Assembly (NCBI GenBank): GCA_947084965.1
Contig: CAMTUG010000001.1
Location: 211,914-275,913, forward strand
Reading direction: 5' to 3'
From: an uncultured Parcubacteria group bacterium
GTDB taxonomy: Bacteria > Patescibacteriota > Patescibacteriia > UBA9934 > CAMTUG01
DNA: 64,000 nucleotides
In this document: positions 1,402-39,740 of the stretch, piece by piece
Layout of the letters: each line of letters opens with the position of its first letter
Numbering within the stretch: the first letter of the stretch is position 1
The notes under the pieces: generated by a model
What the model was told of the DNA's origin: nothing
The model's input: the letters and a program-made list of their open reading frames with translations, nothing else
Databases searched by the model: none
Program-made: the position numbers and the translations under genes

Positions 1402-1463
1402 CTGTTGTTCTCCGTTCGTGTTGACTGATGCCGGACCTTTGGCCACCGGCTTCCCCTAGGGAG

Positions 1464-1527: not shown

Positions 1528-1580
1528 AACGATGTGTTGCTCCCCGTCCACGTGAGTTCTCCAGGGTGAAGGTGCGTTGC

Positions 1581-1856: not shown

Positions 1857-1906
1857 GGGGGACTCCTGGTGGTTGTTGGGGGAGAGTTGCGGTTGCCGTG
1901 AAGGGC

Positions 1907-1973
1907 GTCCGCGAAAGAGACAGCGAGCGATGCTCGTAAGCTCTTTTGCGGAGGGAAGTGAGTGCACTTCCCG
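1907..1973 (-). promoter_or_regulatory. conserved intergenic element B2 (copy of B1)
   Basis: GTCCGCGAAAGAG...GCGAGCGATGCTCGTAAGCTCTTTTGCGGAG is shared with 715-760. It is followed by a compensatory hairpin GGGAAGTGagtgCACTTCCC. Confidence 0.5.
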
Positions 1974-2036
1974 CCTAGCGTCGTTAGCGCGAATGAACGA
2001 TTCAGTCCTCCTAGTTGGTTTGTTGTTGGTTGTCAT

Positions 2037-2666
2037 CTAGGCCGCCGCCTGCTTCTTGTTCGCCGCGTAGCACGTCTCGCAGAGGATCCCGCGGGCGGGG
2101 TCGAGCAGCTTGCTCTCCTTGCCCATGACCTTGGCGGTGACGAACCCGCCGCAGGTGGTGCAGGAGTAGTGGGCGTGCTTCTTCCCTTCCAGCTTGCAGT
2201 GGCAGGTCTTGTCCTCCGGCAAGATCACGGCGTTGAAGACGATCTTCGCCGGGGCCGCGGCGAGCTTGTGGGCACGGGCGGCGTCGCGGCGCTTCTTCTC
2301 GTCCCGCACGTAGCGCCACCAGGCGATCTCGTGCTGGTCCTGCACGTGCGGCGGCTCCTCGTCCTCGTCGACCATCTCCTCGTCCTCGTCGGCCTCGCTC
2401 TCGCTGCCGCCGATGAGGTCGACCCAGGACTCGACCCCCGGGCTGCGGTAGACGAGGTCGGCCGGGCCCCAGGCGCTGAAGCCCTCGAGGTCCGAGTCGT
2501 CCAGCCCCTGCTCCTGGGCCAGCGCGAGGATCTCGTCGAGCTGGTCCTGGTTGAAGGTGCGGGACTTGTTCCCGATCTCGTACATGTCGCGCTCGGTGGC
2601 GCGGTCGTTCATCTCGCCGGCGTAGCGGGCGGCGGCGAGGGCGACGACGTTCTGGGGCTTGGTCAT
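2037..2666 (-). CDS. hypothetical acidic protein with C-terminal Cys-rich zinc-ribbon-like motif (CHC..H..C..C...C..C)
   Basis: ATG at 2666 with an AAGGAG SD. Asp/Glu-rich middle (EADEDEEMVDEDEE). C-terminal KTCHCKLEGKKHAHYSCTTCGG...CETC. Confidence 0.55.
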   Translation of the reverse strand: MTKPQNVVALAAARYAGEMNDRATERDMYEIGNKSRTFNQDQLDEILALAQEQGLDDSDLEGFSAWGPADLVYRSPGVESWVDLIGGSESEADEDEEMVDEDEEPPHVQDQHEIAWWRYVRDEKKRRDAARAHKLAAAPAKIVFNAVILPEDKTCHCKLEGKKHAHYSCTTCGGFVTAKVMGKESKLLDPARGILCETCYAANKKQAAA

Positions 2667-2835
2667 GGGATGCTCCTTCGGCTCAGTACGAGCAGATGGT
2701 TGTCGGTGGTGTCAAAGAGACCGTTTGGTAGTGGTCAGCTATCCGCAGCAGGGGTTGCTTGCCGGAACTCAGGAGCGAATCAAGGATTCGCTTCTAGGTT
2801 CCGGGTAGGGTGCGAGTGCACACCCTCCCGAGAGA

Positions 2836-3057
2836 TCACTTGGCCGCGATCGAGTCGCGGACGTTGGTCATCGGGACGCCGCCGTGGCGCCAGACGATGA
2901 CCTTGGCCGCCAGCTGGGGGTTGCCGCCGTAGCTGACGCGGCTGGTCGTGGCCCAGCTCATGGCGATCATGGCGATGGCGAAGCCGATGGTGATGAGGGT
3001 GGCGATCTGGATGTTGTTGGGGTTCGAGGCGTACTCGATGATCTGGGTGATGTCCAT
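2836..3057 (-). CDS. small membrane protein (73 aa)
   Basis: ATG at 3057 with an ACGGAG SD. Nearly every codon ends in G/C. Hydrophobic core IATLITIGFAIAMIAMSW. Confidence 0.5.
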   Translation of the reverse strand: MDITQIIEYASNPNNIQIATLITIGFAIAMIAMSWATTSRVSYGGNPQLAAKVIVWRHGGVPMTNVRDSIAAK

Positions 3058-3205
3058 GTGGGCTCCGTGGAAGAGGCATGGTCGTGTGACCGCGCCGGGG
3101 TGGGTGTTCTGGGCGGTCGGTGCCCAGACCGGAGAGGAGAAGAGATTCTCCGCTTTGGTCTGGGCCGGGCGCGCGTAGTTCGCACCCGGTCCGGAGAAGT
3201 GCGGC

Positions 3206-3433
3206 CTAGGCGGCCGCGGTGGTGTAGATCTCGATGATGCAGGCGGCGGCGGCCTGCTCGTGGGTGTCGGCGTCGATCTCGCCGATCACATGGCGGAGCT
3301 CGAGCTCCTCGGCCGCCATCCACCCGGAGGTCTCGCCGTCGGTCGCCTCGTCGCAGGCCACGAGGTCGAGGTCGATCGCGGGGGTGGCGTGGCAAGTGCA
3401 CTTGGCGGGGAAACAGGGGATACAGAGATACAT
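3206..3433 (-). CDS. small Cys-rich hypothetical protein (75 aa)
   Basis: ATG at 3433 with an AAGGAAG SD. N-terminal CIPCFPAKCTCH cysteine cluster. Confidence 0.4.
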   Translation of the reverse strand: MYLCIPCFPAKCTCHATPAIDLDLVACDEATDGETSGWMAAEELELRHVIGEIDADTHEQAAAACIIEIYTTAAA

Positions 3434-3924
3434 GGGGGCTTCCTTGGGTGAGGGACACTGACTGGCCGTGTGGCCGACGATCTACTGAGCGACGTTTCGC
3501 CCATGAATCTGGAGGGTAGGGACGCAGTGACCTGCCAAAGGCTGGTGTGCGTCATGACCGTCGAGTCCGTAGCAAGTGAGCTTGCGCCCAGTCGCTACGT
3601 TCGCCGGTCGACCGACTCGGTTTCCCGAGGTACGGCTACTCTCTCCTCCAGGTTCATGAACAAAAACCGCTTGTCTGTCTTGATCCTTTGGAGATCAAGT
3701 CAAACAAGCGGTAACGAACCCACCTATTCCTGCGCCCTCGTAAGGCGCCCAAATAGGTAGTTCGCGTTGACTCTCTCCCCAGAGAATATATGAGTTGTGA
3801 ATCCTGGGCGGTGAGCTCGTGACTCATCGTTCCAGGAGACTATTTATATCACATTTTGACCCTTCTGTCAAGGGAGTCAGGTGGTATTTGGGCCTAAGTT
3901 AGCCAAAATATTATCGGTAAATTC

Positions 3925-4055
3925 GAAGCACGAAATCCGAAATTCAAAACAAATTCGAATCGGAAAGGAGGAAGTTTTTAAAACTTCACTTTTTCCGAAT
4001 TTCCCGATTGTTTCGTATTTCGATATTCGAATTCCGCATTTCACGTTATAATGTC
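3925..4055. repeat. AT-rich palindromic repeat R1 built from CGAAATACGAAA / TTCGTATTTCGAA units around a central AAGTTTTTAAAACTT palindrome
   Basis: Same unit family as 6050-6148 and 6508-6565. The right arm TTGTTTCGTATTTCGATATTCGAATT is the reverse complement of the left arm of R2. A TATAAT box at 4047-4052 lies just before the holB ATG. Confidence 0.6.
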
Positions 4056-4061: not shown

Positions 4062-4925
4062 ATGGATCAGTTGATCGGACACAGCGTGGCAAAAGAACTC
4101 CTTTTGCGGATGGTCAAAAGCGGTCGTTTGGGATCGGGGCTGATTTTGGTCGGGGCAGAAGGGGTTGGGAAAAGGAAAATGGCTGATTGGTTGGTGGAGG
4201 GTGGTTGGAAAGAGGAAAGAGGTGAGAGCAAAGAAGAGATGCGAGCGGATCTGATGGTTATTGAACGTCAACGTAATGACAAGGGCGATCTCAAAAAGAA
4301 CATCAGCATTGAACAGATCCGAGATCTGATTCAACGCCTTTCCATGAGTTCGTTTTCTGGGGGCGCGAAGATCGGTTTGATTGATGGGGCGGAAACGCTT
4401 TCTCTTGATGCGGCCAATGCGCTCCTCAAAACGCTCGAAGACCCTTCGGGAAAAACACACGTGATATTACTTGCGACTTCGGTTGCAAATCTCCCAGCCA
4501 CGATCCTTTCGCGCTGCCAAGTGATTCATCTCGGTCTCGTGCCGCGATCAGAGATCACCACAGCACTTGTCGACCGCGGCGCACCTCGATCGCTGGCAGA
4601 AGAGATCGCCGGATTCGCCGCCGGTCGTCCCGGCATCGCTCTCACGCTTTTGAAGGATGCCGAAGCGCTGGAGTCCGCGGTCGCGAGCAAAGATCGTCTC
4701 CGCGAACTCCTCGCCGCTTCACTCAGTCGGCGATTCGGGATCATTCAGGAATCGGTCAAAGGTGAAGACAAACGCAAAGAGGAGATTTCGCAGATGCTGA
4801 ACGTCTGGGAAACGACGCTCCACGACCTTGGCGAAATCACTCTGCTCGCTCGATTGACCGAAGCCCGCCGCGCCATCGCCCAAAATGTCAGTCCGCAATT
4901 AGCCCTTGAACACGCGTTTCTTTAA
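4062..4925 (+). CDS. holB: DNA polymerase III delta-prime subunit (clamp-loader AAA+ protein), divergent
   Basis: GHSVAKELLLRMVKSGRLGSGLILVGAEGVGKRK Walker-A-like segment, SRCQ sensor motif, HolB-like C-terminal helical domain. The ATG at 4062 follows TATAAT at 4047-4052, suggesting a leaderless or short-leader transcript. The track ORF starts at a TTG inside the repeat. Confidence 0.65.
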   Translation: MDQLIGHSVAKELLLRMVKSGRLGSGLILVGAEGVGKRKMADWLVEGGWKEERGESKEEMRADLMVIERQRNDKGDLKKNISIEQIRDLIQRLSMSSFSGGAKIGLIDGAETLSLDAANALLKTLEDPSGKTHVILLATSVANLPATILSRCQVIHLGLVPRSEITTALVDRGAPRSLAEEIAGFAAGRPGIALTLLKDAEALESAVASKDRLRELLAASLSRRFGIIQESVKGEDKRKEEISQMLNVWETTLHDLGEITLLARLTEARRAIAQNVSPQLALEHAFL

Positions 4926-6041: not shown

Positions 6042-6049
6042 CTGAGATT

Positions 6050-6148
6050 AAATTCGAAATACGAAAAACGAAATTCGAAACAATCGGAAATCGAAAAGGG
6101 AAAGGTTTAAAACTGTCTATTCGAATTTCGTATTTCGAATTTTTTAAG
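6050..6148. repeat. AT-rich palindromic repeat R2 (17-bp stem AAATTCGAAATACGAAA / TTTCGTATTTCGAATTT around a TTTAAAAC centre)
   Basis: Arms are reverse-complementary as read. It sits between the BNR lipoprotein gene and the four-helix-bundle gene and may act as a bidirectional terminator. Confidence 0.6.
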
Positions 6149-6150
6149 AT

Positions 6151-6507
6151 ATGCCTCAGTATGATCTTGAGGGGCGGACCCTACAGTTTGCGATGGATGT
6201 CCGTAAGTTTGTGAAGTGTCTTCATCGATCTGTGGCAAATACAGAGGATACCAAACAGGTTATCAGATCATCTGGATCGATCGGAGCAAATTATATCGAA
6301 GCCAATGAATCTCTTGGAAAGAAAGATTTTTCCATGAGGATTCGGATCTCAAGGAAGGAATCGAAGGAGACGAGATTTTGGTTATTCCTGATTGACACAG
6401 GCGACAACCAGGAGCTGGAAGTCGAGCGCCATCGGCTCATTAAGGAATCGACAGAGCTTATGTTGATTTTCGGTTCAATTCTTCAGAAGAGTTTGCGCAT
6501 TTCCTGA
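6151..6507 (+). CDS. four-helix-bundle protein of the 23S rRNA intervening-sequence / Avd-like family
   Basis: 118 aa. Motifs ...RSSGSIGANYIEANES...KKDFSMRIRISRKESKETRFWLFL... are typical of the 'S23 ribosomal / four helix bundle' family, which also includes DGR Avd proteins. Confidence 0.75.
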   Translation: MPQYDLEGRTLQFAMDVRKFVKCLHRSVANTEDTKQVIRSSGSIGANYIEANESLGKKDFSMRIRISRKESKETRFWLFLIDTGDNQELEVERHRLIKESTELMLIFGSILQKSLRIS

Positions 6508-6565
6508 TTTTTCTATTCGAATTTGTTTCGTATTTCGATTTTCGTATTTCGGATTTCATGAATTG
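6508..6565. repeat. AT-rich repeat R3 (TTCGAATTTGTTTCGTATTTCGATTTTCGTATTTCGGATTTC)
   Basis: Third member of the CGAAATACGAAA unit family. It lies immediately 3' of the four-helix-bundle gene, so that gene is bracketed by R2 and R3. Confidence 0.55.
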
Positions 6566-7158: not shown

Positions 7159-7191
7159 GACGAAAGAGGTTAGAGGTTAGAAGAAAAAAGA

Positions 7192-8523
7192 ATGACTATG
7201 GCAGACGTAACGATGGAGAAATTGGTGAATTTGTGTAAGGCTCGGGGGTTCGTGTACCCGGGCTCTGACATTTATGGTGGGCTGGCCAACTCCTGGGACT
7301 ACGGTCCGCTGGGGGTGGAGTTGAAAAAGAATATTGTGGACGCCTGGTGGAAGCGCTTTGTGACGTCACGTCGCGATATGGTTGGGATCGATGCCGCCGT
7401 GATCATGAATCCGAAAGTGTGGGAGGCGTCGGGACACTTGGCCGAATTCACGGACCCGCTCGTTGAATGTAAAAAATGTCACACCCGTTATCGTGCTGAT
7501 CAGATCGATGTCTCTGCTGCTTGCACGCATTGCGGCACCAAAGGGGAATTCACCGACGCCAAGAATTTCAACTTGATGTTTAAGACGTTCCTCGGTTCAA
7601 CCGAAGACGCCGCTGGTGTTGCCTACTTGCGCGGGGAGTTGGCGCAGGGGATGTTCGTGGATTTTCCGATGGTTCAGCAATCATCGCGCAAGCGCGTGCC
7701 GTTCGGGATCGCCCAGGTCGGAAAGTGTTTCCGTAATGAAATCACTCCAGGCAATTTCATCTTCCGTACCCGCGAATTCAACTTGATGGAGTTTGAGTAC
7801 TTCATCCATCCGTCAGAATGGGAAAAGCATTTTGAGTATTGGCTTGGAGAAATGAAAGCCTGGCTGAAGTTTTTGGGTGTTGCGGACGATAAGCTCGTCT
7901 ATCACGACATCGAAGATGGAGAACGTGCCCACTATTCCAAGCGCACCGTTGATATTGAGTATCACTATCCGTTCGGCCAGAAGGAATTGTATGGTCTCGC
8001 GTATCGTACGGATTTTGACTTGAAGAATCACATGGAAAAGTCTGGCAAGGATCTGCGCTACACCGATCCGATGACCAATGAAAAGTATTTGCCGCACGTC
8101 ATCGAACCGACGTTTGGTATTGATCGTTCGCTTCTTGTAACCCTCCTCGAAGCGTACCGCGAAGAAGAAGCGCCAACGAGCGAAGAGGGGGAATCGGCGA
8201 CGCGTGTTGTCCTGAGGCTTCCAAAGTCACTCGCCCCGTACAAAGTGGCTGTGCTTCCATTATCCAAAAAAGACGAACTTTCGAGTGTCGCGTTGAAACT
8301 CGCCGATGATCTGCGCACCCAATTCGCCTGCGACTACGATGAAACGCAATCGATCGGCAAACGCTATCGCCGCCAAGACGAAATCGGCACGCCGTTCTGT
8401 GTGACCGTGGACTTTGACTCGCTCACCGATCAATCGGTCACGGTGCGGGATCGCGACACGATGGCCCAAGAACGGGTGAAGATCGCCGAACTCGCGGACT
8501 ATTTGAAAAACAAATTGGCATAG
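7192..8523 (+). CDS. glyQS: glycine--tRNA ligase, single-chain alpha2 type
   Basis: Class II GlyRS hallmarks (GFVYPGSDIYGGLANSWDYGPLG, FRNEITPGNFIFRTREF, C-terminal anticodon-binding domain). 443 aa. Confidence 0.9.
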   Translation: MTMADVTMEKLVNLCKARGFVYPGSDIYGGLANSWDYGPLGVELKKNIVDAWWKRFVTSRRDMVGIDAAVIMNPKVWEASGHLAEFTDPLVECKKCHTRYRADQIDVSAACTHCGTKGEFTDAKNFNLMFKTFLGSTEDAAGVAYLRGELAQGMFVDFPMVQQSSRKRVPFGIAQVGKCFRNEITPGNFIFRTREFNLMEFEYFIHPSEWEKHFEYWLGEMKAWLKFLGVADDKLVYHDIEDGERAHYSKRTVDIEYHYPFGQKELYGLAYRTDFDLKNHMEKSGKDLRYTDPMTNEKYLPHVIEPTFGIDRSLLVTLLEAYREEEAPTSEEGESATRVVLRLPKSLAPYKVAVLPLSKKDELSSVALKLADDLRTQFACDYDETQSIGKRYRRQDEIGTPFCVTVDFDSLTDQSVTVRDRDTMAQERVKIAELADYLKNKLA

Positions 8524-8528
8524 GCGAT

Positions 8529-9803
8529 ATGTTGAAAGGGAAAACGCTGAAGAACGGAACGCGCGTCCATCTAGTGCCAACAGAAGGAACAGAAGCGACA
8601 ACCTTACTTGTTCTTTTTAAAGTCGGTTCGCGCAACGAATCGCTGCCGGTGTGGGGCGGATCACACTTTGTCGAACACTTGATGTTTAAGGGAACAAAGA
8701 AGCGGGGGACCACGCTCGATATTTCACGCGAACTCGATCGCTACGGCGCTGAATACAACGCCTATACCGGAAAGGACTTAACCGGCTATTGGGTCAAAAT
8801 CGAAAGTGGCAAAATTGGTGTCGCGGTCGACTTGTTGCACGACATGCTGTTTCACTCGAAGTTCGATGCGACCGAAATGACGCGCGAGAAAAAGGTGATC
8901 ATTGAAGAGATCAAGATGTACGAAGAGAATCCGATCATGCACATCGAAGACTTGCTCGAAGAGGCGATGTTCGATGGTCACGTGCTCGGACGCAACATCG
9001 CTGGCACGGCCAAATCGATGATCGCCATGAAACGCAACGACGTCGTTACTTATCACAAAAATTACTACGTCCCGGAAAACATGGTAGTCGTGATGGCCGG
9101 AAGCGTGCCAAAGAATGCCTTGGCCATGATTCAAAAAACGTTCGGCGGTGTTTCGTCCAAAAAGATGAAACGGCTCGACGAGCCGTTTGCTGGAGTGCTG
9201 GCAGCCAAATCGATTCGTGCTCGCATTCAGACGAAGCCGGTTGAGCAGATTCAGTTGGCACTCGGATTTCCAACGGGCGGCCGGGCGCATAAAGATATGG
9301 ACGCGCTGAAACTCTTGGCTTCGATTTTAGGTGGAACGATGTCTTCGCGGTTATTTGTCGAAGTGCGCGAGAAACGCGGGTTGTGCTATACCGTGCGTGC
9401 TGGACTTGATGCTTATGATGACGTCGGTGTTTTCCAGATTCGCGCCGGGCTCGACGCCAAGCGATTGAAGGAGGCGATGAAGGTGATTATCGATGAAGTG
9501 AAGAAGGTGGTCAAAGATGGCGTCTCTGCGAAAGAATTACAGATGGCCAAGGATAATGTCCGCGGCGGTATGCTCCTCCAGCTCGAGGACTCATCCGCTA
9601 GCGCAGAATTTGTCGCCCGCCAAGAATTATTTTTGCGTGAAGTGCTGACGCCAGAAGAACGGATGAAGCGCTTCGATGCGGTGACGCGTGAAGACGTCCT
9701 TCGTGCCGCGCGAGAAGTTCTGGATTTTCGTCTGATGTCCGCGGCAGGGATCGGTCCATACAAAACGACAACGGAGTTTTTGAAACACTTTCCTAAACTA
9801 TGA
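8529..9803 (+). CDS. M16 family zinc metallopeptidase (insulinase/pitrilysin-like)
   Basis: Inverted zinc motif HFVEHLMFKGT (HxxEH), a downstream E in REKKVIIEEI, and a two-domain M16 length. Confidence 0.8.
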   Translation: MLKGKTLKNGTRVHLVPTEGTEATTLLVLFKVGSRNESLPVWGGSHFVEHLMFKGTKKRGTTLDISRELDRYGAEYNAYTGKDLTGYWVKIESGKIGVAVDLLHDMLFHSKFDATEMTREKKVIIEEIKMYEENPIMHIEDLLEEAMFDGHVLGRNIAGTAKSMIAMKRNDVVTYHKNYYVPENMVVVMAGSVPKNALAMIQKTFGGVSSKKMKRLDEPFAGVLAAKSIRARIQTKPVEQIQLALGFPTGGRAHKDMDALKLLASILGGTMSSRLFVEVREKRGLCYTVRAGLDAYDDVGVFQIRAGLDAKRLKEAMKVIIDEVKKVVKDGVSAKELQMAKDNVRGGMLLQLEDSSASAEFVARQELFLREVLTPEERMKRFDAVTREDVLRAAREVLDFRLMSAAGIGPYKTTTEFLKHFPKL

Positions 9804-10564
9804 AGACGCTCGTCGCCAACTGGAAGATGCACTTGACGGTGCGCCAGTCGGTCGCCTTGGCGAAGGTGTCCGTTGCTGCGTTGCGTGGTAAAACGGCGCT
9901 GCCTGAGGTTATTCTCGCTCCAAGTTTTCCAGCGCTCGAAGCGGTGCACCGGGTGATAGCGAAAAGTCGCCTTGGCCTCTGCGCTCAGGATGTTTCCTTT
10001 GAAGACGCCGGCGCCTTTACCGGCGAAGTTTCTCCGCGACAACTCAAAGATCTCGGAGTCACCCATGTGATCATCGGTCACAGTGAACGCCGAGCGATGG
10101 GGGAAACGGATGCGACGATTAACAAGAAGGTGATCGCTGTGCTGGCTGCCGGAATGACGCCGATTATCTGCGTTGGGGAAAGGAAAGAGGAAAGAGGAAA
10201 GAGGAAAGAGATCGTCACCCGTCAAGTTAAAGCCGCGCTGGCGACACTGAAGACCCGGGCCAAGGAACACCTTGTTTTCGCTTATGAACCGATTTGGGCG
10301 ATCGGCACGGGTGATGCGGCGACTCCAGAAGATGCGGTTGCCATGCATGCCTGCATCCGGGAAACGGCGCTTGGGGCCATTGACGGACTAAAAGAAAAAC
10401 AACTGCGTGTGCTGTATGGTGGAAGCGTCAACGGAAAAAATGCGCAGAGTTTCTTGTGTGAAGATCAGATTGACGGATTGCTCGTCGGCGGGGCCAGTTT
10501 GAAACCTGTCGAATGGAAGGCGATTATCACCGCTGCGATCAAGATTCAAAATGGGAAACGTTAA
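9800..10564 (+). CDS. tpiA: triose-phosphate isomerase
   Basis: NWKMH, IIGHSERR, ICVGE, AYEPIWAIGTG and YGGSV motifs. Start overlaps the M16 stop (ATGA). Contains an in-frame (AGGAAAG)4 tract at 10181-10210 encoding RKEERGKRKE. Confidence 0.9.
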   Translation: MKTLVANWKMHLTVRQSVALAKVSVAALRGKTALPEVILAPSFPALEAVHRVIAKSRLGLCAQDVSFEDAGAFTGEVSPRQLKDLGVTHVIIGHSERRAMGETDATINKKVIAVLAAGMTPIICVGERKEERGKRKEIVTRQVKAALATLKTRAKEHLVFAYEPIWAIGTGDAATPEDAVAMHACIRETALGAIDGLKEKQLRVLYGGSVNGKNAQSFLCEDQIDGLLVGGASLKPVEWKAIITAAIKIQNGKR

Positions 10565-10565
10565 T

Positions 10566-11351
10566 ATGCTCTCCCTCTGGATTCCGCTCGGTATCATCAT
10601 CCTGTCGGTCATCCTTCTGCTCGTCTTGGCGATCAGAAAGATTCCGTATTTGCGCGCGCTTGATGTCCTTTCTGCACCGGAGCAAAAGGCTAAAGAGTTG
10701 AAACGTGCGCTGATCGCCTCGCGCCTTTCGCGTGCTGGGGCAAAATACGGAGGACAGATGAAGAAGATTTTTTCGCCGATCGTTGGAGCCGCCAAGTCGA
10801 GCGGAAGAAAGGCGGCAGAAAAAGTTTCTGCCCTTGAAGAACGCTATCAAAAGCTTCGGCGGGAAGCGATGGGACCGCACGCTCTGACTCCAGCGATGAT
10901 TAAAGAGATGATCAGTAAAGCCGAAGCGTTCATTAAGGATGAGCGATACGGCGAAGCGGAAAAAGCGTTAATCGAAGTTCTCTCCCACGATGCCAAGAAC
11001 GCTGAGGCGTACGAAACGCTCGGTTATCTATTCATGCTTCAGAAGAATTACGATCAGGCAGAAGAGACGTATAACTTTATCTTGAAAATTCAGCCAGGAG
11101 ACGCCTCGGTCCTAACGTCATTAGGGGAAATTGAATTGGCTCGAAATAATCCGGAGAAGGCGAAACAGTACTTCGATAAGGCGGTGAAGAAGCGTCCGCA
11201 TAATCCGAAGTATCTCGATTTTCTGCTGGAAGCATCGATCCAGGCTAAGGATGCTTCCGCAGCTCGCTGGGCGCTCGAGCAACTTCGCGGGGCGAATCCA
11301 GAAAATAAGAAACTCGGCGAATTTGAAGAGCGCATTCAATCGATTTCATAG
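10566..11351 (+). CDS. TPR-repeat protein with N-terminal transmembrane anchor
   Basis: N-terminal TM helix (LSLWIPLGIIILSVILLLVLAI), then about three TPR-like helical repeats (AEAYETLGYLFMLQKNYDQAEETYNFILKIQPGD...). Confidence 0.6.
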   Translation: MLSLWIPLGIIILSVILLLVLAIRKIPYLRALDVLSAPEQKAKELKRALIASRLSRAGAKYGGQMKKIFSPIVGAAKSSGRKAAEKVSALEERYQKLRREAMGPHALTPAMIKEMISKAEAFIKDERYGEAEKALIEVLSHDAKNAEAYETLGYLFMLQKNYDQAEETYNFILKIQPGDASVLTSLGEIELARNNPEKAKQYFDKAVKKRPHNPKYLDFLLEASIQAKDASAARWALEQLRGANPENKKLGEFEERIQSIS

Positions 11352-11365
11352 CTCGCGCACGAGCG

Positions 11366-11400
11366 ACCCTTTACAAAAGGGTCGTTTGTGTATAAGCTTG
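11366..11400 (+). terminator. intrinsic terminator after TPR gene (CGACCCTTtacaaAAGGGTCG + T-run)
   Basis: Perfect 8-bp stem followed by TTTGTGT. Marks the left edge of the high-GC island. Confidence 0.55.
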
Positions 11401-11452
11401 GACATCCTGTCTACCCAAATCAGGATGCCCCTGAACCTTCCCGAGGTGCCCC

Positions 11453-12589
11453 ATGTTCATCGCGCCGTTCATCCTTTCGCTCTTCGCTCCGGCCTTCGCC
11501 GAGGAGCCCGTCCCCGTCGTCTCGCCGGTCGCCGCGCCCAAGACCTACATCCTCGTCGCCGGGACGAGCGAGTACCAGAACGCGCCGGACCTGCCGGGCG
11601 TCGAGGGGGCGACCAAGGACTGCCAGACGATCGGTGCTCGGCTGATCGAGGTCGGGTTCACCACCGAGCAGGTCACCGCGCTCTGCGGCGACAAGCTCAC
11701 CAAGCCGGCGGTCGTCGAGGCGGTCAACACCCTGGCGCCCCGACTTGTTGCCGGGGACACCTTCGTCGTCGTCTGGATCGGCCACGGCGGCCAGGACCCG
11801 AAGGACGAGACCAAGAAGTACTGGCAGGGCTACGACGGCAGCTTCGTCGTCGATCCGGCCGCCCCGACCAACTACTTCACGACCGGGATCACCCCGACGA
11901 TGCTCACGAAGGCGATCAAGAGCAAGACGCCGGCCGGGACCCCGATCGTCCTCATGACCGACACGTCGGACAGTGGGTCCTACAACGGGATCCCGCTCAG
12001 CGGGCCGGTCGCCGACACCTTCGAGAAGGAGGTCTACATGATCTCCCCGGGGATGGCGCTTGGCAAGTCCGGGGCGCTCACGAAGTCGTTCATCGGCTGT
12101 CTCGAGCCCCGCATGCGCTACGGCGTCGCCGAGGAGCACACCGCGATCGAGGTCCAGGCCTGCATGTCGAACGGTCTCAGGGCCAGCAACATCGAGTCGT
12201 GGCTTTCCAGCGCGGACTGGGATACGATCACCACGCTCATCTGGTTCCCGCCGCTTCCGCCCGCGCTTCCCAGGCCACTCCCTGAGCAGACGGCCAGGAA
12301 GCCGTCGACGGTGAAGCCGGCGATGCGCTGGGGCGGTGTCGCCCTCGCCGTCATCGGTGGCGGTGGAGCAGCCGCGTCGTACCTCCACGCGGACGGCATC
12401 GCGGGACAGATCGCTGACGAGAACGGCGTCGTCGATCCCCGGGACGCGGCCGCGCTCGAGGAGTACAACCTGTTCAAGACCCTGACCTACGTCGGCTACG
12501 GTGTCGTCGGCCTCGGTGCGATCAGCTTCGGCGGTTCGCTCGTCGTCGCTCCCGCCCCGACCGGTGTCACGGTCAGCGGAACGTTCTAA
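11453..12589 (+). CDS. caspase-fold (peptidase C14-like) domain protein with signal peptide and C-terminal TM segments; catalytic Cys position occupied by Ser
   Basis: YILVAGTSEY...DCQTIGARLIEVGF...VVVWIGHGG...PIVLMTDTSDSGS matches the caspase/metacaspase strand order with His retained. DTSDSG sits where D-A-C-H-S-G is expected. N-terminal MFIAPFILSLFAPAFA signal. Gly-rich hydrophobic C-terminus. About 68% GC. Confidence 0.55.
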   Translation: MFIAPFILSLFAPAFAEEPVPVVSPVAAPKTYILVAGTSEYQNAPDLPGVEGATKDCQTIGARLIEVGFTTEQVTALCGDKLTKPAVVEAVNTLAPRLVAGDTFVVVWIGHGGQDPKDETKKYWQGYDGSFVVDPAAPTNYFTTGITPTMLTKAIKSKTPAGTPIVLMTDTSDSGSYNGIPLSGPVADTFEKEVYMISPGMALGKSGALTKSFIGCLEPRMRYGVAEEHTAIEVQACMSNGLRASNIESWLSSADWDTITTLIWFPPLPPALPRPLPEQTARKPSTVKPAMRWGGVALAVIGGGGAAASYLHADGIAGQIADENGVVDPRDAAALEEYNLFKTLTYVGYGVVGLGAISFGGSLVVAPAPTGVTVSGTF

Positions 12590-12614
12590 CCGTTCCGACC
12601 TCTCTAACGTGAAG

Positions 12615-12650
12615 CCCCCGACTGCAGACGGCAGTCGGGGGTTCGCATTT
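12615..12650 (+). terminator. intrinsic terminator (CCCCCGACTGC agacg GCAGTCGGGGG + TTCGCATTTTGT)
   Basis: 11-bp perfect stem and a T-rich tail just 3' of the caspase-like gene. Confidence 0.6.
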
Positions 12651-12694
12651 TGTCCGAGGTCCGGAGAGCGAGTGGCGCGCTCCGGACCGTCTGA

Positions 12695-13528
12695 CTAGCG
12701 GAAGTAGAGGGTGTGGTTGGACGCCTTGGGGCGTTGGCCGGCCAGTCGGTCGAACTGGGTGGGGACGAATCCCCCCAGGTTGACCCCCTGGAGACGCAGG
12801 GCCGAGGTTGCGTCGACGTCGCCGACCAGCCAGGCGTTCCACAGCGACTCGGCGAAGTCGCCGCCGCGGGTGCGCAGGGCACTCTCGATCACGGGCCAGG
12901 CTTCGTCCGAGTGCCAGTGATCGAACGGCGTGTACTCCGGCGGGAAGGTTGCCGGGAACCCGAACAGGGCGCGGAACCAGTTGGGGATCGCGCGGCGGGT
13001 TGCGATCTCCTGGTTGCGGAGATCGACCTTGGTGCGGTTCTCGCTCCAGAAGTCGATCTCGATGAAGGGCGTGTCCGTATCGCCCCCCTTGCGAACCGGG
13101 CAGAAGAAGATGGAGAACCCCGCGCTCACCTTGGCGCCGCGAAGGATCAGGAGGTTGAGCAAGGGTTCGAGCCGGGCCTTCATGCCCTTCTCGTCTCGCA
13201 TCTTGTCCAGGATCTTCGGGTGCTTCGGTCCGGCGCTGATCACCCAGCTCCCGAGCGGCACGGGGCCGGTCGTCTTGAGATCTTCGAGCACCGCCCGGAC
13301 CTCGACGAGTGCCGGGACGGACACGGGCTTCTGCCGTTCGCGGAACGGGGTGAGGGTCACCCAGGGCAGGCTCGGGTCGACCTCGTCCTTGTCGATCACG
13401 CGGTCGGTGGGGAGACGCAGGACCCGGCTCTTGTTGTCCGGTCGGTCGATGTCCGGCGTCCGGATGAACGAACGCACTTCGGGTGCGCCCTTCTTGGGAA
13501 CGGCGAAGGGGAGAGATCTCTGGGCCAC
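12695..13528 (-). CDS. hypothetical protein (about 277 aa, high GC), likely GTG start
   Basis: Long GC3-rich frame. The first 35 residues of track ORF 12695..13633 lie in AT-rich promoter DNA. GTG at 13528 is preceded by GAGGT. No recognisable domain. Confidence 0.45.
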   Translation of the reverse strand: MAQRSLPFAVPKKGAPEVRSFIRTPDIDRPDNKSRVLRLPTDRVIDKDEVDPSLPWVTLTPFRERQKPVSVPALVEVRAVLEDLKTTGPVPLGSWVISAGPKHPKILDKMRDEKGMKARLEPLLNLLILRGAKVSAGFSIFFCPVRKGGDTDTPFIEIDFWSENRTKVDLRNQEIATRRAIPNWFRALFGFPATFPPEYTPFDHWHSDEAWPVIESALRTRGGDFAESLWNAWLVGDVDATSALRLQGVNLGGFVPTQFDRLAGQRPKASNHTLYFR

Positions 13529-13589
13529 GGCTACCTCGGGGTTAAGGGTTTGCACATGAAAGCATTTTTTCAAATGAACGTCAATGATT

Positions 13590-13647
13590 ATTGACAATTC
13601 GCTTATTTTCGTGTTAAAGAACCGTTGGCACATTCACGGAGGTCTAG
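13590..13647 (+). promoter_or_regulatory. AT-rich divergent promoter region with TTGACA box and GGAGGT SD for the kinase gene
   Basis: TTGACA at 13592-13597. GGAGGT sits 6 nt before the ATG at 13648. This is the only AT-rich stretch inside the high-GC island. Confidence 0.35.
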
Positions 13648-15366
13648 ATGCAAGAACACCCAACGTCGTTTGGCGAAGGACGCTACCGCGTCGAGCGGCT
13701 GATCGGCCAAGGAGGGATGGCCAGGGTGTACCTGGCCTACGACACCCGGAACCACCGACCGGTCGCGATCAAGGTTCCGAACCCCAACCTGCTCACCCCG
13801 GACAAGGTGGTGCACGTGCGGGCGCGGCACGACAACGAACGTGCGGTCCTCGGAATTCTGGTCCACCCGTTCGTTCCGGCGCTCTACGATCACGGTGAGG
13901 AGCCGTCGGGGAAGGAGAACAACCCGACCACCACGCCCTACATCGTCATGGAGTACGTGCCGGGACGCGACCTCGAAGAGTGTCGGACCGAGTTCGGCGC
14001 ACTGCCGCCTCGGGTCGTCTGTCACGCCATGCTCCAGGTCCTCTCGGTTCTGGCTCAGCTCCACGCCGACGTTCGCGGGATCGTCCACCGTGACGTCAAG
14101 CCGGCGAACATCCGTCTGCGTGCGGACAAGCTCGTCAAGCTGATGGACTACGGGATCGCCAAGGTGCATCGCACCAGGGGCTCTGCCGGCAAGACGATGT
14201 TCCAGCCCAACATGACCCGGAGCGATTCACCGATCGGCACCCGCGGGTTCATGGGGATCGCCCAGATCTCGATGGATGCGGACCTCGGACCGCGGGCGGA
14301 TCTCTACGGCGTCGTGGCCACGATGGTCGCGCTCCTCACCGGCAAGGACCGCGCACCTGATCTGTGGAACGTGAAGGGCGAAGTGCACACTGCGCTCACC
14401 GGTGTGCCGCGGATCCTGCGGCCGATCATCATCCGCTGTGCGAGCGAGGTGATCCCAGACAACCAGAAGGTCACCTCGGCCGAAGAGTGCGCGCGCCTGC
14501 TCGAGGCCCTGATCGCCAAGCTTCCGGAAGATGACAGCGATCGCTTCTGGAAGTGGTTCCGGAAAGAGGGGATGACGATCGTTCCAGACGTCCTCGTGCC
14601 GAGCTCCTGGCCCGGTGGCGACATCGATGAGCACCTGCGTGAACTCCCGTCGGTCGATCGCTTCGTCCCCGAACCCGCGGAAGCGGAAGGGGAACCGGCG
14701 GAGTTCGATGACGAGGGATCGGCCCCGGACGATGAGGAGTTCGTCCCGGCTCGTCGATCGCGAGTCCTGCCCTTCTTCGGAGGGGCGGCTCTGCTCGCGG
14801 CTCTCTTCGGACTCGGCGTCGTGTTCTGGGGTGACGAACCGAGCGTGGTGCAGGAAAGTCTCATGCCGGCTGTCGCGGCCCCATCGAGCGCGGCCGTCAT
14901 CGAGATCGATCGAAGGGATACCCAACCGTCCCTCACCAGGATCGCCACATCGGATCCTGCGCCTTCACCCCCGCCTGAATCGGTCGGCGGTGTCCCAGCG
15001 ATCAACACGCCGCCCACACCAGCCGAACAGACCGATCGTCCGAAGATCGATCGGCCGGTCCGCGATCGTGTCCCGGCAACCGTCACCCCTGCGCCGGTCG
15101 TCACCCCACCCCCTCCGATCCCGGCCCAGGCCCCTCCGGCTCCGGTCGAGGAAGAAGAGAAGGGCACGGTGCGTGTCACGGGCGGAGTTCCGGTGCGGCT
15201 CAAGAAGGGGGGAGCGATCTTCTCCGCCCCGGGCTCGGTCAAGCCGGGCACCTACACGGTCGAGGCACAGTTCGCCGACACCTACACCCCGCAGATGGAG
15301 ATCACCGTGAAGCCCGGGGAGACACGGACCGTCTCCTGCGACCGCGACTTCACGTCCTGCGAATAG
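13648..15366 (+). CDS. Hanks-type Ser/Thr protein kinase, single-pass membrane, with Pro-rich linker and C-terminal PEGA-like beta domain
   Basis: GQGGMARV (G-loop), VAIK, HRDVKPANIRL, DYG (DFG variant), one TM helix (VLPFFGGAALLAALFGLGVVFW), PAPxPPP-rich region, and a terminal KPGTYTVEAQF...TVKPGETRTV motif. Confidence 0.85.
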   Translation: MQEHPTSFGEGRYRVERLIGQGGMARVYLAYDTRNHRPVAIKVPNPNLLTPDKVVHVRARHDNERAVLGILVHPFVPALYDHGEEPSGKENNPTTTPYIVMEYVPGRDLEECRTEFGALPPRVVCHAMLQVLSVLAQLHADVRGIVHRDVKPANIRLRADKLVKLMDYGIAKVHRTRGSAGKTMFQPNMTRSDSPIGTRGFMGIAQISMDADLGPRADLYGVVATMVALLTGKDRAPDLWNVKGEVHTALTGVPRILRPIIIRCASEVIPDNQKVTSAEECARLLEALIAKLPEDDSDRFWKWFRKEGMTIVPDVLVPSSWPGGDIDEHLRELPSVDRFVPEPAEAEGEPAEFDDEGSAPDDEEFVPARRSRVLPFFGGAALLAALFGLGVVFWGDEPSVVQESLMPAVAAPSSAAVIEIDRRDTQPSLTRIATSDPAPSPPPESVGGVPAINTPPTPAEQTDRPKIDRPVRDRVPATVTPAPVVTPPPPIPAQAPPAPVEEEEKGTVRVTGGVPVRLKKGGAIFSAPGSVKPGTYTVEAQFADTYTPQMEITVKPGETRTVSCDRDFTSCE

Positions 15367-15373
15367 CTCAACG

Positions 15374-15400
15374 CCCTCCTCGGTACTCGAGGGGGGCGCT
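15374..15400 (+). terminator. GC-rich hairpin after kinase gene (GCCCTCCTCGgtacTCGAGGGGGGC)
   Basis: Read directly from the sequence. The T-run is weak. Confidence 0.4.
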
Positions 15401-15456
15401 GCATTTATACGCTTGTCATTCCAGGACCGTTCGGGTATATTGACGCGGCAATATTA

Positions 15457-15531
15457 GCCGCAGTAGCTCAGTGGTAGAGCACCTCCATGGTAAGGAGGGG
15501 GTCTCGGGTTCAAATCCCGACTGTGGCTCCA
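15457..15531 (+). tRNA. tRNA-Thr (anticodon GGT)
   Basis: Cloverleaf GCCGCAG/ta/GCTCagtggtAGAGC/a/CCTCCatGGTaaGGAGG/gggtc/TCGGGttcaaatCCCGA/CTGTGGC/t/CCA. CCA is encoded. Confidence 0.85.
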
Positions 15532-15532
15532 T

Positions 15533-15568
15533 GAAAATAGATCAGAAGTTTCTGATCTATTTTCATTT
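15533..15568 (+). terminator. intrinsic terminator after tRNA-Thr (GAAAATAGATCAG aagtttc CTGATCTATTTTC)
   Basis: Perfect 13-bp stem with a T-rich 3' side. Confidence 0.7.
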
Positions 15569-15666
15569 AAGGGTGGGGATTTGAACCGTGGGAAAGGGGT
15601 ACGGGGAAAACGAACACGAGGGAGACCTGTTTGTGTTACAATTAAACAAAGGATGCATGAATATTT

Positions 15667-16677
15667 ATGAAAAAATCGACGCTTACGTATCTTAGTTTGT
15701 TGATCGTTCTTGGCCTGGCGATGGTTACAGGATTTTCTGTGATCAAGGATCGTTTTTTCACATCAGACAATTTGATCGCGGATAACACGAATGAGAGGGT
15801 GTTGAATGCCTTTAGTTGTAATAGCAGTCAAATGTTCATACCCCCGACAAGCGGAGAAGACTTAACGGAGATTCAATTGTATACCGCGCGAAGTGATGAT
15901 GGTGTTACTTTTGCAGATGAACGGGAGTTTATAAAAGGTGCGGGCGTACCAAGTGTGACGCAAGGTGAGGACGGAACGCTCTTTGCTGTTTTCAATTGGT
16001 TCCCATCCTATGCAGAAAATCCAGATTGCTATAACAAAATCGCCATGATGACTTCGAACGACGCTGGTGTTACATGGGACGGTCCGTTCGGTTTATTTAT
16101 CGAAGAGTTCCCGGACGATTATCAACTGCCTTATGATCCTACGATTGCACGAGACGCTGAGGGGAAATTTAGGATGTTTTTCACGACACATAAATTAGGT
16201 ATGGACGAGCCGTTTATTTACGGGAGTGCAGTATCTGAAGACGGTCTTCACTTTACTTATGACGGTATCGTATTTGAAAGTAAAGGTAATCATGTTGTGG
16301 ATGGCTCAGAAATATATTTCAACGGCAAGTGGATTATGATTGCCCCGCTCGCTAAGCAAAACGGCGAGGCCCTTCAGGCGACTTCCATTGATGGACGTTT
16401 GTTTGAGGTGGTGAATAGTAATCGGCCAAAACGCAGTATGTATTGGGTAGGAAATATGGTCGCACTTGCTGACGAAGTCCGTTTTTATGGTTCGTGCGGT
16501 GAAGAAACGGATCTTCGTGGACTTTGTTATAGTGCGACAACGGATGGGAATGTTTGGGATGATCCGGTCCTTACAAACGGTTACGCCGGTGATCCGGGGG
16601 TTGTATATCTGGATGATGGACAGTTCGTCATTATTTATGCAGAGCCTCGTGCGCCTGTCGTACCAATAGAACGATAA
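15667..16677 (+). CDS. secreted BNR/Asp-box beta-propeller protein (sialidase / glycoside-hydrolase-like), low GC
   Basis: Signal/TM N-terminus. S-x-D-x-G-x-T-W/F motifs (SDDGVTF, SNDAGVTWDG, SEDGLHF, TTDGNVWD). About 42-45% GC versus about 50% for the backbone. Confidence 0.6.
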   Translation: MKKSTLTYLSLLIVLGLAMVTGFSVIKDRFFTSDNLIADNTNERVLNAFSCNSSQMFIPPTSGEDLTEIQLYTARSDDGVTFADEREFIKGAGVPSVTQGEDGTLFAVFNWFPSYAENPDCYNKIAMMTSNDAGVTWDGPFGLFIEEFPDDYQLPYDPTIARDAEGKFRMFFTTHKLGMDEPFIYGSAVSEDGLHFTYDGIVFESKGNHVVDGSEIYFNGKWIMIAPLAKQNGEALQATSIDGRLFEVVNSNRPKRSMYWVGNMVALADEVRFYGSCGEETDLRGLCYSATTDGNVWDDPVLTNGYAGDPGVVYLDDGQFVIIYAEPRAPVVPIER

Positions 16678-39737: not shown

Positions 39738-39740
39738 GGA

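Follow-up and report, generated by a model that had tools for sequence, protein, structure and literature searches.

The DNA analysed here, a window of 64 kb, lies in a contig of at least 476 kb, and its host, an uncultured bacterium of groundwater type, is Patescibacteria/Uhrbacteria-like according to the best named matches. On the + strand at 9800-10564 the window carries tpiA, which encodes a triosephosphate isomerase (TPI) of 254 aa (Pfam TIM, E 4e-79; also supported by an AF2 model and by synteny). The gene order holB-BNR-frr-aaRS-M16-tpiA-TPR is common to the window and the relative L002. Inside tpiA, Tandem Repeats Finder (TRF) detected a perfect (AGGAAAG)x4.3 array at 10181-10210 (+; period 7, 30 nt, 100% matches). 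The 36 bases 10175-10210 read GGG GAA AGG AAA GAG GAA AGA GGA AAG AGG AAA GAG in the frame of the ORF and encode GERKEERGKRKE, in which RKEERGKRKE, TPI residues 128-137, is the peptide of the array. The first-pass annotation had described the tract as perfect and in frame, and both properties were borne out by TRF, by the reading of the ORF and by independent Logan contigs.

The Logan contigs come from run ERR3478686 and match window positions 8364-10210, 10181-15493 and 38841-52776 at 100% identity; the last of these ranges includes three arrays. Two of them, L125 (ending at 10210) and L127 (starting at 10181), overlap by exactly the 30-base tpiA array. Since the unitigs break exactly at this array, the 30-mer is a branch node in the k=31 graph of ERR3478686. 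The break is the point in favour of an assembly, library or adapter artefact, or of an array that was collapsed or mis-joined at the repeat. However, both unitigs hold the full 30-nt array joined to the correct tpiA halves, the join is predicted to yield a full-length TIM barrel (pLDDT 93), an independent Logan contig crosses three other arrays unbroken, and the degeneracy of the holB copy (76% matches) speaks for evolutionary age. The array is also not known to match Illumina adapter sequences. An artefact is extremely improbable; the tract is real, and the independent contigs reproduce it outside the present assembly. When JGI metagenomes were searched with the flanks of the tpiA array set 23-53 nt apart, no length alleles were recovered (0 matches); conspecific contigs were not found there either, and the result is neutral on polymorphism. 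The branch node in the Logan graph is the one indirect hint of an unstable copy number. For annotation and assembly, such arrays matter as branch points in de Bruijn graphs, which can split essential genes across contigs.

Five AGGAAAG arrays were detected in the window, distributed over four genes: holB, tpiA, a gene for a 691-aa membrane protein (twice) and a gene for a 106-aa membrane protein. In-frame recurrence in at least four other genes had been proposed before; the recurrences exist and are in frame, but the four other sites lie in three genes. With at most one mismatch, (AGGAAAG)2 gave 10 matches at 5 window loci, compared to 0.03 expected from dinucleotide shuffles, so that recurrence by chance is excluded. 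AGGAAAG is also the sole homopurine unit repeated in the window.

The holB array (4207-4234, +) is degenerate and consists of the units GGAAAGA GGAAAGA GGTGAGA GCAAAGA, which encode WKEERGESKE (TRF period 7, 4.0 copies, 76% matches; 26 of 30 positions match an ideal AGGAAAG array). The conserved, Uhrbacteria-type membrane-protein ORF at 40737-42812 (-, 691 aa) carries two arrays. At 41411-41459 (+ strand coordinates, TRF), a perfect (GAGGAAA)x4.1 array (41411-41439) is followed by a 20-nt non-repeat flank, GCGGGGCCGCTGCGTCCCGC; the sense strand of the gene (-) reads AGRSGPAFPLSSFLFPP, and the translation of the array aligns with PLTIFLLPS and TLSIFLLPP of relatives. The other site (42398-42469, +, TRF) is compound and falls within a variable loop of the protein. 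It comprises (AAGTGGT)x3.9 at 42398-42424, (AGAGGAA)x2.3 at 42434-42449 and the flank GCGGGGCCACCGTGTCCCGC at 42450-42469, which is identical to the flank 41440-41459 at 17 of 20 positions and is read in a different frame. AAGTGGT gives TAA on the + strand and is open on the - strand, the sense strand of this gene. In the conserved 106-aa membrane ORF (46322-46642, +), an alternating AGGAAAG/AGGAAAA array with a 14-nt higher-order period (x2.5, TRF) lies at 46489-46523 on the - strand; its pyrimidine strand is the sense strand and reads YPFSSFLFPLS. Apart from the flank of the two membrane-gene copies, nothing beyond the repeat is shared, as the tpiA, holB and 106-aa-gene copies have only the unit in common and the flanks of the tpiA array match no other array in the window. 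A composite of flank and array, GGCCCCGCCTTTCCTCTTTCC, had 0 matches in JGI metagenomes, which is neutral on wider dispersal. The GC-rich sequence beside the two membrane-gene arrays was considered as a hairpin or terminator; this reading was rejected, as it folds no better than its shuffles and a terminator scan made no call.

The tpiA tract belongs to this same-unit family and, beyond it, to about 11 period-7 arrays, as counted by TRF within the 64 kb of the longer contig. Among perfect arrays with at least 3 copies and periods of at least 5, only period 7 occurred (3 observed, 0 in 50 shuffles). The lengths of the perfect arrays are bimodal, with 2-2.5 and 4-4.5 copies and none at 3. The units found are AGGAAAG, AAGTGGT, AGAGGTT and AAATNCG. 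(AGAGGTT)x2.4 is intergenic, between frr and the next gene (7165-7181, +, TRF), and two of its positions distinguish it from AGAGGAA; in the relative L002, the spacer at this place is 1 nt long.

A cassette of about 510 nt (6047-6559, +) is also a period-7 phenomenon, but with a different unit. Its inverted arms (6047-6097 and 6509-6559; a 51-nt inverted repeat, 80% complementary) and an inner arm (6120-6142) consist of AAATNCG heptamers, and the arms pair in MFE and centroid folds (z -3.75). They enclose an ORF (6151-6507) of the 23S rRNA-intervening-sequence protein family (Pfam PF05635, E 6e-11). In place of the cassette, L002 has a 40-nt spacer. For this Avd-like gene, no reverse transcriptase partner was found among the window ORFs scanned. 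An intergenic hairpin after rpmA (62229-62303, +; RNA fold of -38.7 kcal/mol at z -6.3, a stability that none of 200 shuffles reached) carries (GTAAGTG)x2.9 in its 5' arm (62235-62254, TRF) and the complement in its 3' arm; the unit is the same as that of the array at 42398-42424.

The state before the arrays can be read from two syntenic relatives that are essentially without heptamer arrays. Where the window has its tpiA and small-gene arrays, the DNA of L002 (65% TPI protein identity) and L126 (75.5% nucleotide identity over 6.7 kb) is free of repeats, and the 67%-identical homologue of the 106-aa gene in L126 is non-repetitive, with the window gene 2 aa shorter. The tract is therefore derived and lineage-specific, and ordinary divergence, the alternative raised for it in the first-pass annotation, does not account for it. 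In the alignment, CVGERKEER--GKRKEIV of the window TPI stands opposite CVGESTKERTSGKQKRVV and CVGETKTERQAGKAESVV. The array takes the place of a 12-residue segment of the relatives with a net loss of 2 residues; the earlier view that it replaces the native segment after ICVGE, and is no addition to it, holds. An in-frame mini-insertion, likewise suggested earlier, applies to holB only, where the array is a clean 30-nt (10-aa) insertion into a variable-length linker compared to the syntenic ortholog, and not to tpiA and the 106-aa gene (each net -2 residues). In their similarity to the array, the orthologous native segments rank merely at the 73rd-98th percentile (tpiA segment of L002 98th, other sites 73rd-88th), and nucleation of the arrays on array-like native DNA was rejected. 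Judged by the 2 aa that tpiA and the 106-aa gene have each lost on balance and by native DNA that is poorly array-like, the arrays replaced native sequence and did not grow from a proto-repeat. The comparison genomes are distant (62-75% identity), and intermediate states are unseen among them. With this earlier state available, events can be scored as replacement or insertion, together with length change, orientation and tolerance of the site.

The first-pass annotation had also placed the tract next to the catalytic loop, which is incorrect. In the AF2 model, residues 128-137 make up the first (N-terminal) half of helix alpha-5, which follows strand beta-5 (block-mean pLDDT about 95-96), and in alignment and model the catalytic residues K9, H94 and E163 as well as loop 6 lie away from them. 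The invariant glycine G133 is kept within the array segment. As the model of the window TPI is a full TIM barrel (mean pLDDT 93, pTM 0.92), a simple DNA repeat appears to have remodelled a helix of a conserved enzyme with the predicted fold unbroken. The RNA fold of the tract is weaker than that of its shuffles.

The AGGAAAG unit contains a stop codon in none of the six frames and hence is able to sit inside ORFs. Which strand is the sense strand follows the type of protein in all five cases: the purine strand is read in holB and tpiA, and the pyrimidine strand at the three membrane-protein sites. Soluble proteins thereby receive the purine-strand peptide RKEERGK, and membrane proteins the pyrimidine-strand peptide LSSFLFP. 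All array sites are permissive, being a surface helix, a variable linker, or a loop or transmembrane edge. This pattern of strands and sites suggests that selection filters a mutational process.

Repeats of AGGAAAG are widespread, with at least 119 matches in very diverse bacteria. In 119 loci from other phyla, period 7 accounted for 207 perfect arrays, compared to 1-6 for each other period of at least 5, and 34 of 109 arrays lay within long ORFs, compared to 67% of random segments. Inverted pairs, (AGGAAAG)n-spacer-(CTTTCCT)n, make up about 15 of 130 arrays there, and their orientation is exclusive (17 to 0); some of these pairs lie in frame inside recJ, gcpE/ispG and mfd. A phmmer search of all ORFs of the 119 loci found no 23S-intervening-sequence protein gene alongside the arrays, with the limited sensitivity of a single query. 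The mirror-image control (GAAAGGA)3, of identical mono- and dinucleotide content, stands at 22 in viral contigs, compared to 10 for AGGAAAG. The mirror-image unit is thus at least as frequent there, and a special cross-phylum role of AGGAAAG was rejected; the breadth of its matches is therefore largely ascertainment. Xanthomonas is reported to prefer four units; that such a preference is general was rejected as well, since the non-AGGAAAG arrays of the other loci fall steadily in number from 2-3 copies up. One unit at five sites in the window, although not favoured globally, points to copying within the genome or to a genome-specific bias.

On balance, the tpiA tract is moderately likely to be one copy of a lineage-specific dispersed heptanucleotide family of the STRR or long simple sequence repeat (SSR) kind, spread by templated patch copying with subsequent slippage and passively carried. 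A brief templated patch, made for example by template switching or microhomology-guided repair with another array as the template, would have substituted an array of about 30 nt for about 36 nt of native tpiA; for the tpiA array we infer this copying. Once written, arrays would drift by slippage and point mutation, and the 14-nt period at 46489-46523 is counted as such later slippage. Inside a gene, a copy would survive only if it alters the length by a net multiple of 3, if its sense strand is free of stops, if it falls into a permissive segment, and if its orientation gives a suitable peptide (RKEERGK in soluble, LSSFLFP for membrane proteins). Probably the gene tolerates the tract as a passenger without a function of its own, and we infer that it is neutral. 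Among the three mechanisms named in the first-pass annotation, a conversion or templated-patch tract would fit best, with slippage visible as a putative later process.

Pure replication slippage in situ would do without copying between loci: the arrays would have grown from purine-rich proto-repeats, and the shared unit would reflect codon and amino-acid bias (GAA, AAG, AGA, GAG, GGA). This is the standard SSR model and has been proposed for heptamers (PMC4679880, PMC4692102); the 14-nt period can be taken as a local duplication, compound arrays with units one mutation apart abut in other bacteria, and the native TPI segment is rich in Glu, Lys and Arg, that of L002 reaching the 98th percentile of array similarity. 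However, steps of +/-7 nt shift the frame of essential genes, so that 4.3 perfect copies at a net change of -6 nt could be reached only through several steps that coincide or are lethal. The remaining orthologous sites do not stand out (73rd-88th percentile), all five homopurine arrays share a single necklace out of about 18 possible ones, a non-repeat flank is common to two sites, and copy numbers avoid 3. The same unit five times, lengths altered by a net -6, -6 and +30 nt, target DNA with little prior similarity and a shared flank are hard to obtain by stepwise slippage and therefore constrain the mechanisms; slippage as the only process is fairly unlikely. Somewhat less probable still is an origin without any slippage, in which a dedicated templated process would write the heptamer arrays. 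A polymerase, a primase or a repair activity copying a 7-nt template over and over at breaks, or a function encoded by an element, might produce arrays of about four units, often as purine-then-pyrimidine inverted pairs, and might overwrite coding DNA. If this were true, essential genes in the gene-dense genome of this Patescibacterium would make the process visible and help to explain the dominance of 7-nt units among the long SSRs of prokaryotes.

The inverted pairs of other phyla, with their exclusive orientation, are also what would be expected if the arrays were solo arms, that is remnants of small palindromic mobile elements with heptamer-array terminal inverted repeats that inserted in frame like Rickettsia palindromic elements. 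The hairpins with heptamer arms in the window (62229-62303 and the gene-bearing 6047-6559) and the clean insertion in holB agree with this. Yet no inverted partner was found near any AGGAAAG array in the 64-kb window, the orthologs of tpiA and of the 106-aa gene are longer than the window genes, neither target-site duplications nor common ends were seen, and no transposase, integrase or reverse transcriptase occurred among the part of the window ORFs that was scanned with Pfam. Hairpins beside the membrane-gene arrays are no more stable than shuffles. An origin from such elements is unlikely. That the array is functional, as a contingency locus, an internal Shine-Dalgarno-like pause, a binding site for RNA or protein (e.g. 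for cold-shock-type OB-fold proteins) or a stabiliser of helix alpha-5, is very unlikely. Units whose length is not divisible by 3 are the hallmark of frame-switching contingency loci, GAGG/AGGA cores are repeated in the array, CspB was reported to bind heptamer repeats with one protein per heptamer (PMC4679880), and RKEERGKRKE is predicted to be helical with high confidence. But the hosts are housekeeping or essential genes (tpiA, holB) and not surface or host-interaction genes, so that switching them off is implausible as a bet-hedge; AGGAAAG lies on opposite sense strands in different genes, contrary to an RNA signal on one particular strand, relatives with the same operons lack the arrays, and there was no match to an Rfam family.

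The family of copied and then slipping heptamers favoured here resembles several known systems. STRR have been known in cyanobacteria since 1990, and period-7 units have been noted as the dominant long simple repeats of many bacteria since 2007. STRR1-3 of heterocystous cyanobacteria have the units CCCCAGT, TTGGTCA and CAACAGT; membership in this group was rejected, as neither the units of the window nor its Patescibacteria/Uhrbacteria-like host match. The RPE described by Ogata et al. in 2000 in Rickettsia are reportedly palindromes of 100-150 bp that lie in frame in protein genes and add residues. Like these, the arrays are short repeated DNA in frame in housekeeping genes, at surface-exposed tolerant sites and specific to a lineage; unlike them, the tpiA tract is 30 nt long, non-palindromic and built from a simple 7-nt unit, with a net loss of 2 residues. 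An RPE-like or MITE nature does not fit, since neither palindromes nor terminal inverted repeats were found at the AGGAAAG arrays of the window, since no duplicated flanks were seen, and since tpiA and the 106-aa gene lost 2 aa each and only holB gained residues (+10 aa). A target of a diversity-generating retroelement was likewise rejected: no reverse transcriptase was found in the part of the window ORFs that was scanned, and the variants between arrays are not adenine-specific.

Contingency loci (phase-variable SSRs) of Haemophilus, Neisseria and others (PMC8262952, PMC11868660) also have tandem units that are not a multiple of 3 in or near a gene, so that a change by one unit would shift the frame. 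The arrays of the window differ from them, with about 4 copies and hosts from core metabolism and replication instead of surface or restriction genes, and no length alleles were observed; with tpiA, holB and conserved membrane proteins as hosts, membership is very unlikely. The cyanobacterial STRR, GGGAATC/GGGGAYT of Xanthomonas and Nostoc (PMC4692102) and TAACTGA of Beggiatoaceae, Cyanobacteria and Bacteroidetes (PMC4679880) are genome-specific families of one or a few heptamers in 2 to tens of copies at many loci, sometimes as inverted pairs forming stem-loops, and of patchy phylogenetic distribution. The unit sequences differ, and TAACTGA contains stop codons whereas AGGAAAG has none; formation of G-quadruplexes does not apply to AGGAAAG because the unit has no G3 runs.

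There is also a likeness to the heptanucleotide long SSRs of Mrazek, Guo and Shah (2007). As presented in two papers citing that study (PMC4679880, PMC4692102), heptanucleotides are the most abundant long SSRs in many prokaryotes, by a mechanism that is unexplained, with polymerase slippage over a 7-nt footprint as the proposal; several tandem 7-nt units per genome, strongly over-represented relative to other periods of at least 5, occur at many loci and are lineage-specific. The tpiA tract, too, consists of at least 3 head-to-tail copies of a 7-nt unit, and period 7 is over-represented around it. In these accounts, the long SSRs lie for the most part between genes, and genes are expected to contain few units of a length indivisible by 3, whereas about half of the window arrays (6 of about 11) lie inside conserved ORFs, in frame, also in essential genes, and at least 2 of them overwrite native codons. 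The literature search found no report of heptamer long SSRs for Patescibacteria and no mention of the AGGAAAG repeat string for bacteria. The class of repeat is thus a known one; its occurrence in this lineage is new, and so is the overwriting of essential genes in frame.

The triosephosphate isomerase (TPI) gene tpiA (ORF 9800-10564, + strand; Pfam TIM, E 4e-79) contains a perfect array of the heptamer AGGAAAG (x4.3, 10181-10210; 100% matches at period 7 in Tandem Repeats Finder). Bases 10175-10210 read GERKEERGKRKE in the frame of this ORF, and both bases and frame agree with the first-pass annotation. In the window, two tandem AGGAAAG units with at most one mismatch gave 10 matches at 5 loci (0.03 expected). 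Perfect arrays of at least three copies, at periods of five or more, were detected with period 7 only (n = 3 vs 0 in 50 dinucleotide-preserving shuffles of the window). A chance origin of the tpiA array is excluded.

The identical TPI protein is recorded on an NCBI contig of 476,519 nt, and Logan contigs, which stem from an independent assembly of run ERR3478686, are identical to the window (100%) in three stretches. One of these (38841-52776) crosses three arrays; the others end (L125, 8364-10210) and start (L127, 10181-15493) exactly where the tpiA array ends and starts. Their overlap is exactly this 30-nt array, which corresponds to k-1 of a k=31 unitig graph. Since both contigs share the array, it is present in the reads on both sides, joined to the halves of one frame, and the break with overlap at this position identifies the 30-mer as a branch node in the graph of ERR3478686. 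The sample must hold either a second copy of at least 30 nt elsewhere or a longer allele. Assemblies at the unitig level can break essential genes at heptamer arrays of this kind. The joined protein gave a full TIM-barrel model (mean pLDDT 93, pTM 0.92), and the copy in holB is degenerate (76% matches), which argues for evolutionary age and against a library artefact. An assembly artefact, considered in the first-pass annotation, is very unlikely in view of the Logan contigs, the intact barrel model and the degenerate holB copy.

The nearest TPI relatives are 62-65% identical, and the best named matches of TPI and of the membrane protein encoded at 40737-42812 belong to Candidatus Uhrbacteria and other Patescibacteria. 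One of these TPI relatives, a contig from Hainich groundwater (L002), has holB-BNR protein-frr-class II aaRS-M16 peptidase-tpiA-TPR protein in the same order as the window, and L126 is the closer relative for another part (75.5% DNA identity over 6.7 kb, collinear with 43200-49891). In the alignment, CVGERKEER--GKRKEIVTRQV of the window TPI stands against CVGESTKERTSGKQKRVVGKQV and CVGETKTERQAGKAESVVRAQV of the relatives, whose tpiA codons at this site are ordinary, non-repetitive DNA. The window protein is 2 residues shorter at the tract; G133, an invariant glycine, and the conserved Glu/Arg/Lys positions are retained. Judged from this alignment, the tpiA event is a replacement and no insertion, as had been proposed in the first pass for the segment after ICVGE. 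The placement next to the catalytic loop was mistaken, since the catalytic residues K9, H94 and E163 as well as loop 6 (after E163) lie elsewhere in the sequence; the tract does come after the conserved motif ICVGE. In the model, the tract comprises residues 128-137 in the N-terminal half of helix alpha-5 (H129-146; block-mean pLDDT about 95-96), directly after strand beta-5 (E120-125). The tract is most likely a tolerated passenger.

In-frame recurrence of the heptamer, likewise noted before, was confirmed, with four further sites in three genes instead of four genes. In holB, the array GGAAAGA GGAAAGA GGTGAGA GCAAAGA (4207-4234) encodes WKEERGESKE, a 10-residue insertion in comparison to the syntenic ortholog, within a linker of variable length among homologues. 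The membrane protein gene (ORF 40737-42812, - strand), a real gene, full-length homologues of which occur in Uhrbacteria, harbors a perfect array (x4.1, 41411-41439) and a shorter one (x2.3, 42434-42449), both with the pyrimidine strand as sense strand, as well as (AAGTGGT)x3.9 (42398-42424). Its FPLSSFLFPP aligns with SPLTIFLLPS and TLSIFLLPP of relatives at a loop/transmembrane edge; the second array site is a variable loop. These AGGAAAG arrays lie about 1 kb apart and are each followed by a GC-rich 20-nt stretch, GCGGGGCC-N5-GTCCCGC (41440-41459 and 42450-42469; 17/20 identical, translated in different frames). A 21-nt composite of flank and array had no match in the JGI metagenomes. The last site (46489-46523) lies inside a 106-aa ORF of a small membrane protein; the homologue in L126 (67% identical) is encoded by non-repetitive DNA, and the window gene is 2 residues shorter. 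As a set, the coding copies inform on how heptamer arrays arise.

In translation, a 7-nt unit occupies each of the three frames within 21 nt and can be coding only if the circular unit is free of stop triplets. AGGAAAG lacks T and its complement lacks A and G, so that all six frames are open. AAGTGGT yields TAA on the + strand and is open on the - strand, which is the sense strand where it was found. In two soluble proteins the sense strand is the purine strand (RKEERGK), and at three membrane-protein sites it is the pyrimidine strand (LSSFLFP), a pattern that holds for 5/5 sites; all AGGAAAG coding sites are a surface helix, a variable linker or a loop edge. The net length changes at coding sites (-6, -6 and +30 nt) are multiples of three. 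This pattern of frame, strand and site is what purifying selection would leave from a frame-blind process, and it does not require a frame-respecting one.

Stepwise slippage from a proto-repeat at each site might be considered as the origin of the arrays. Single-unit steps would shift the frame of essential genes, however, and two of the genes ended up shorter than their ancestral form. Moreover, the orthologous DNA of the relatives is unremarkable in its similarity to the array (98th percentile for L002 tpiA, 88th for the L126 small gene, 73rd for tpiA of the comparison locus L004 and 72nd for L002 holB). All five homopurine arrays belong to the same one of about 18 possible homopurine necklaces, and two of them share the 20-nt non-repeat flank. 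Frame steps, ortholog percentiles and the common unit and flank together argue against slippage as the origin, and on these sequence comparisons we favor short-patch copying between loci. Short patches might be copied via template switching or microhomology-guided repair, and slippage may have acted later, as the 14-nt higher-order period at 46489-46523 suggests. No donor of the tpiA tract was found; its flanks match no other array.

About 11 period-7 arrays were detected in the 64 kb by Tandem Repeats Finder. Beside AGGAAAG, the units are AAGTGGT/GTAAGTG (42398 and 62235), AGAGGTT (7165) and AAATNCG (6050, 6120 and 6526); each unit of the first two departs from the AGGAAAG register at two positions, and their arrays match an ideal AGGAAAG array at 23/30. 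Intergenic arrays tend toward hairpins, such as a very stable one directly after rpmA (L27; 62229-62303, -38.7 kcal/mol, z -6.3). Its arms consist of GTAAGTG and the complement, a unit common to the in-frame array 42398-42424. A cassette of about 510 nt (6047-6559), located between frr and the BNR-protein gene, carries 51-nt inverted arms of AAATNCG heptamers, which pair in the predicted fold (z -3.75) and flank ORF 6151-6507 (118 aa; 23S rRNA-intervening-sequence protein family, PF05635). This four-helix-bundle family includes the DGR accessory protein Avd. At the same site L002 has only a 40-nt spacer, and the cassette looks like an rRNA-IVS-type element within an mRNA operon. The 33 nt that separate frr from the following gene (1 nt in L002) contain (AGAGGTT)x2.4 (7165-7181). 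AGAGG cores recur in this array 11-27 nt ahead of the ATG at 7192, so that it may have duplicated the ribosome-binding site. The comparison contigs L001, L002 and L126 are essentially free of such arrays, which points to a family that is recent in the window lineage or was lost in the others.

The G+C content is 60-65% at 1-4000 and about 11400-16000, and 50-55% in the rest of the window. Genes for a Ser/Thr protein kinase and for a protein of the caspase family (Peptidase_C14) lie in the latter region, which ends at tRNA-Thr (15457-15531). It is contiguous in L127, which excludes a mis-join, and may have been acquired horizontally as an island. Positions 19900-28557 form a single ORF of 2885 aa.

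In a scan with each species represented by one genome, (AGGAAAG)3 occurred in at least 119 stretches. Hosts among the matches listed were Bacteroidota, Chloroflexota, Gammaproteobacteria, Cyanobacteria, Deinococcales, Acidobacteriota and others. Perfect arrays in these matches were mostly of period 7 (n = 207; 130 of the query unit and 77 of about 40 others, often abutting) vs 1-6 for each other period of at least 5, and about one third (34/109) lay in long ORFs vs 67% of random segments. Bona fide genes with arrays, again among the matches listed, were recJ (same site in two Anaerolineae), gcpE/ispG, mfd and a TonB-dependent receptor. The same matches contained about 15 inverted pairs, (AGGAAAG)n-spacer 9-143 nt-(CTTTCCT)n (L066 6837-6908, L087 3323-3373, L080 2066-2150, L120 4915-5019 and about 11 further loci), some in frame inside recJ, gcpE/ispG and mfd, with the purine arm first in 17 to 0. 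In Burkholderiales (L052, L101), complementarity extends beyond the arrays, and Prevotellaceae spacers begin with AATACT. As an ascertainment control, the mirror-image unit (GAAAGGA)3, of the same mono- and dinucleotide content, was at least as common in viral contigs (22 vs 10). The reading of AGGAAAG as a special cross-phylum element was therefore dropped, and the breadth is ascribed to a general heptamer phenomenon.

Among long SSRs, heptanucleotide units have been reported as the most abundant kind in many prokaryotic genomes, and polymerase slippage linked to a footprint of 7 nt was proposed as their cause (Mrazek et al. 2007, as cited in PMC4679880 and PMC4692102). Known families are the cyanobacterial STRR and GGGAATC/GGGGAYT in Xanthomonas and Nostoc (PMC4692102) as well as TAACTGA in Beggiatoaceae, Cyanobacteria and Bacteroidetes (PMC4679880); they are described as mainly intergenic and of unknown origin (PMC4679880, PMC4692102). 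The window arrays resemble them in unit length, over-representation, multiple loci and units, and lineage specificity, but differ in the host lineage, the frequent in-frame arrays in essential genes and the overwriting of native codons. Literature searches found no report of heptamer repeats in Patescibacteria. Rickettsia palindromic elements are likewise repeat DNA tolerated in frame at protein surfaces, but their defining features, palindrome and added length, are missing from the tpiA tract. By gene class, the tract is not a contingency locus, and no DGR partner was seen among the window ORFs scanned. The first-pass description was largely correct; the feature is real and lineage-specific. 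The tract is best filed as a heptamer repeat of a known class, with novelty in its host lineage and in the in-frame overwriting.
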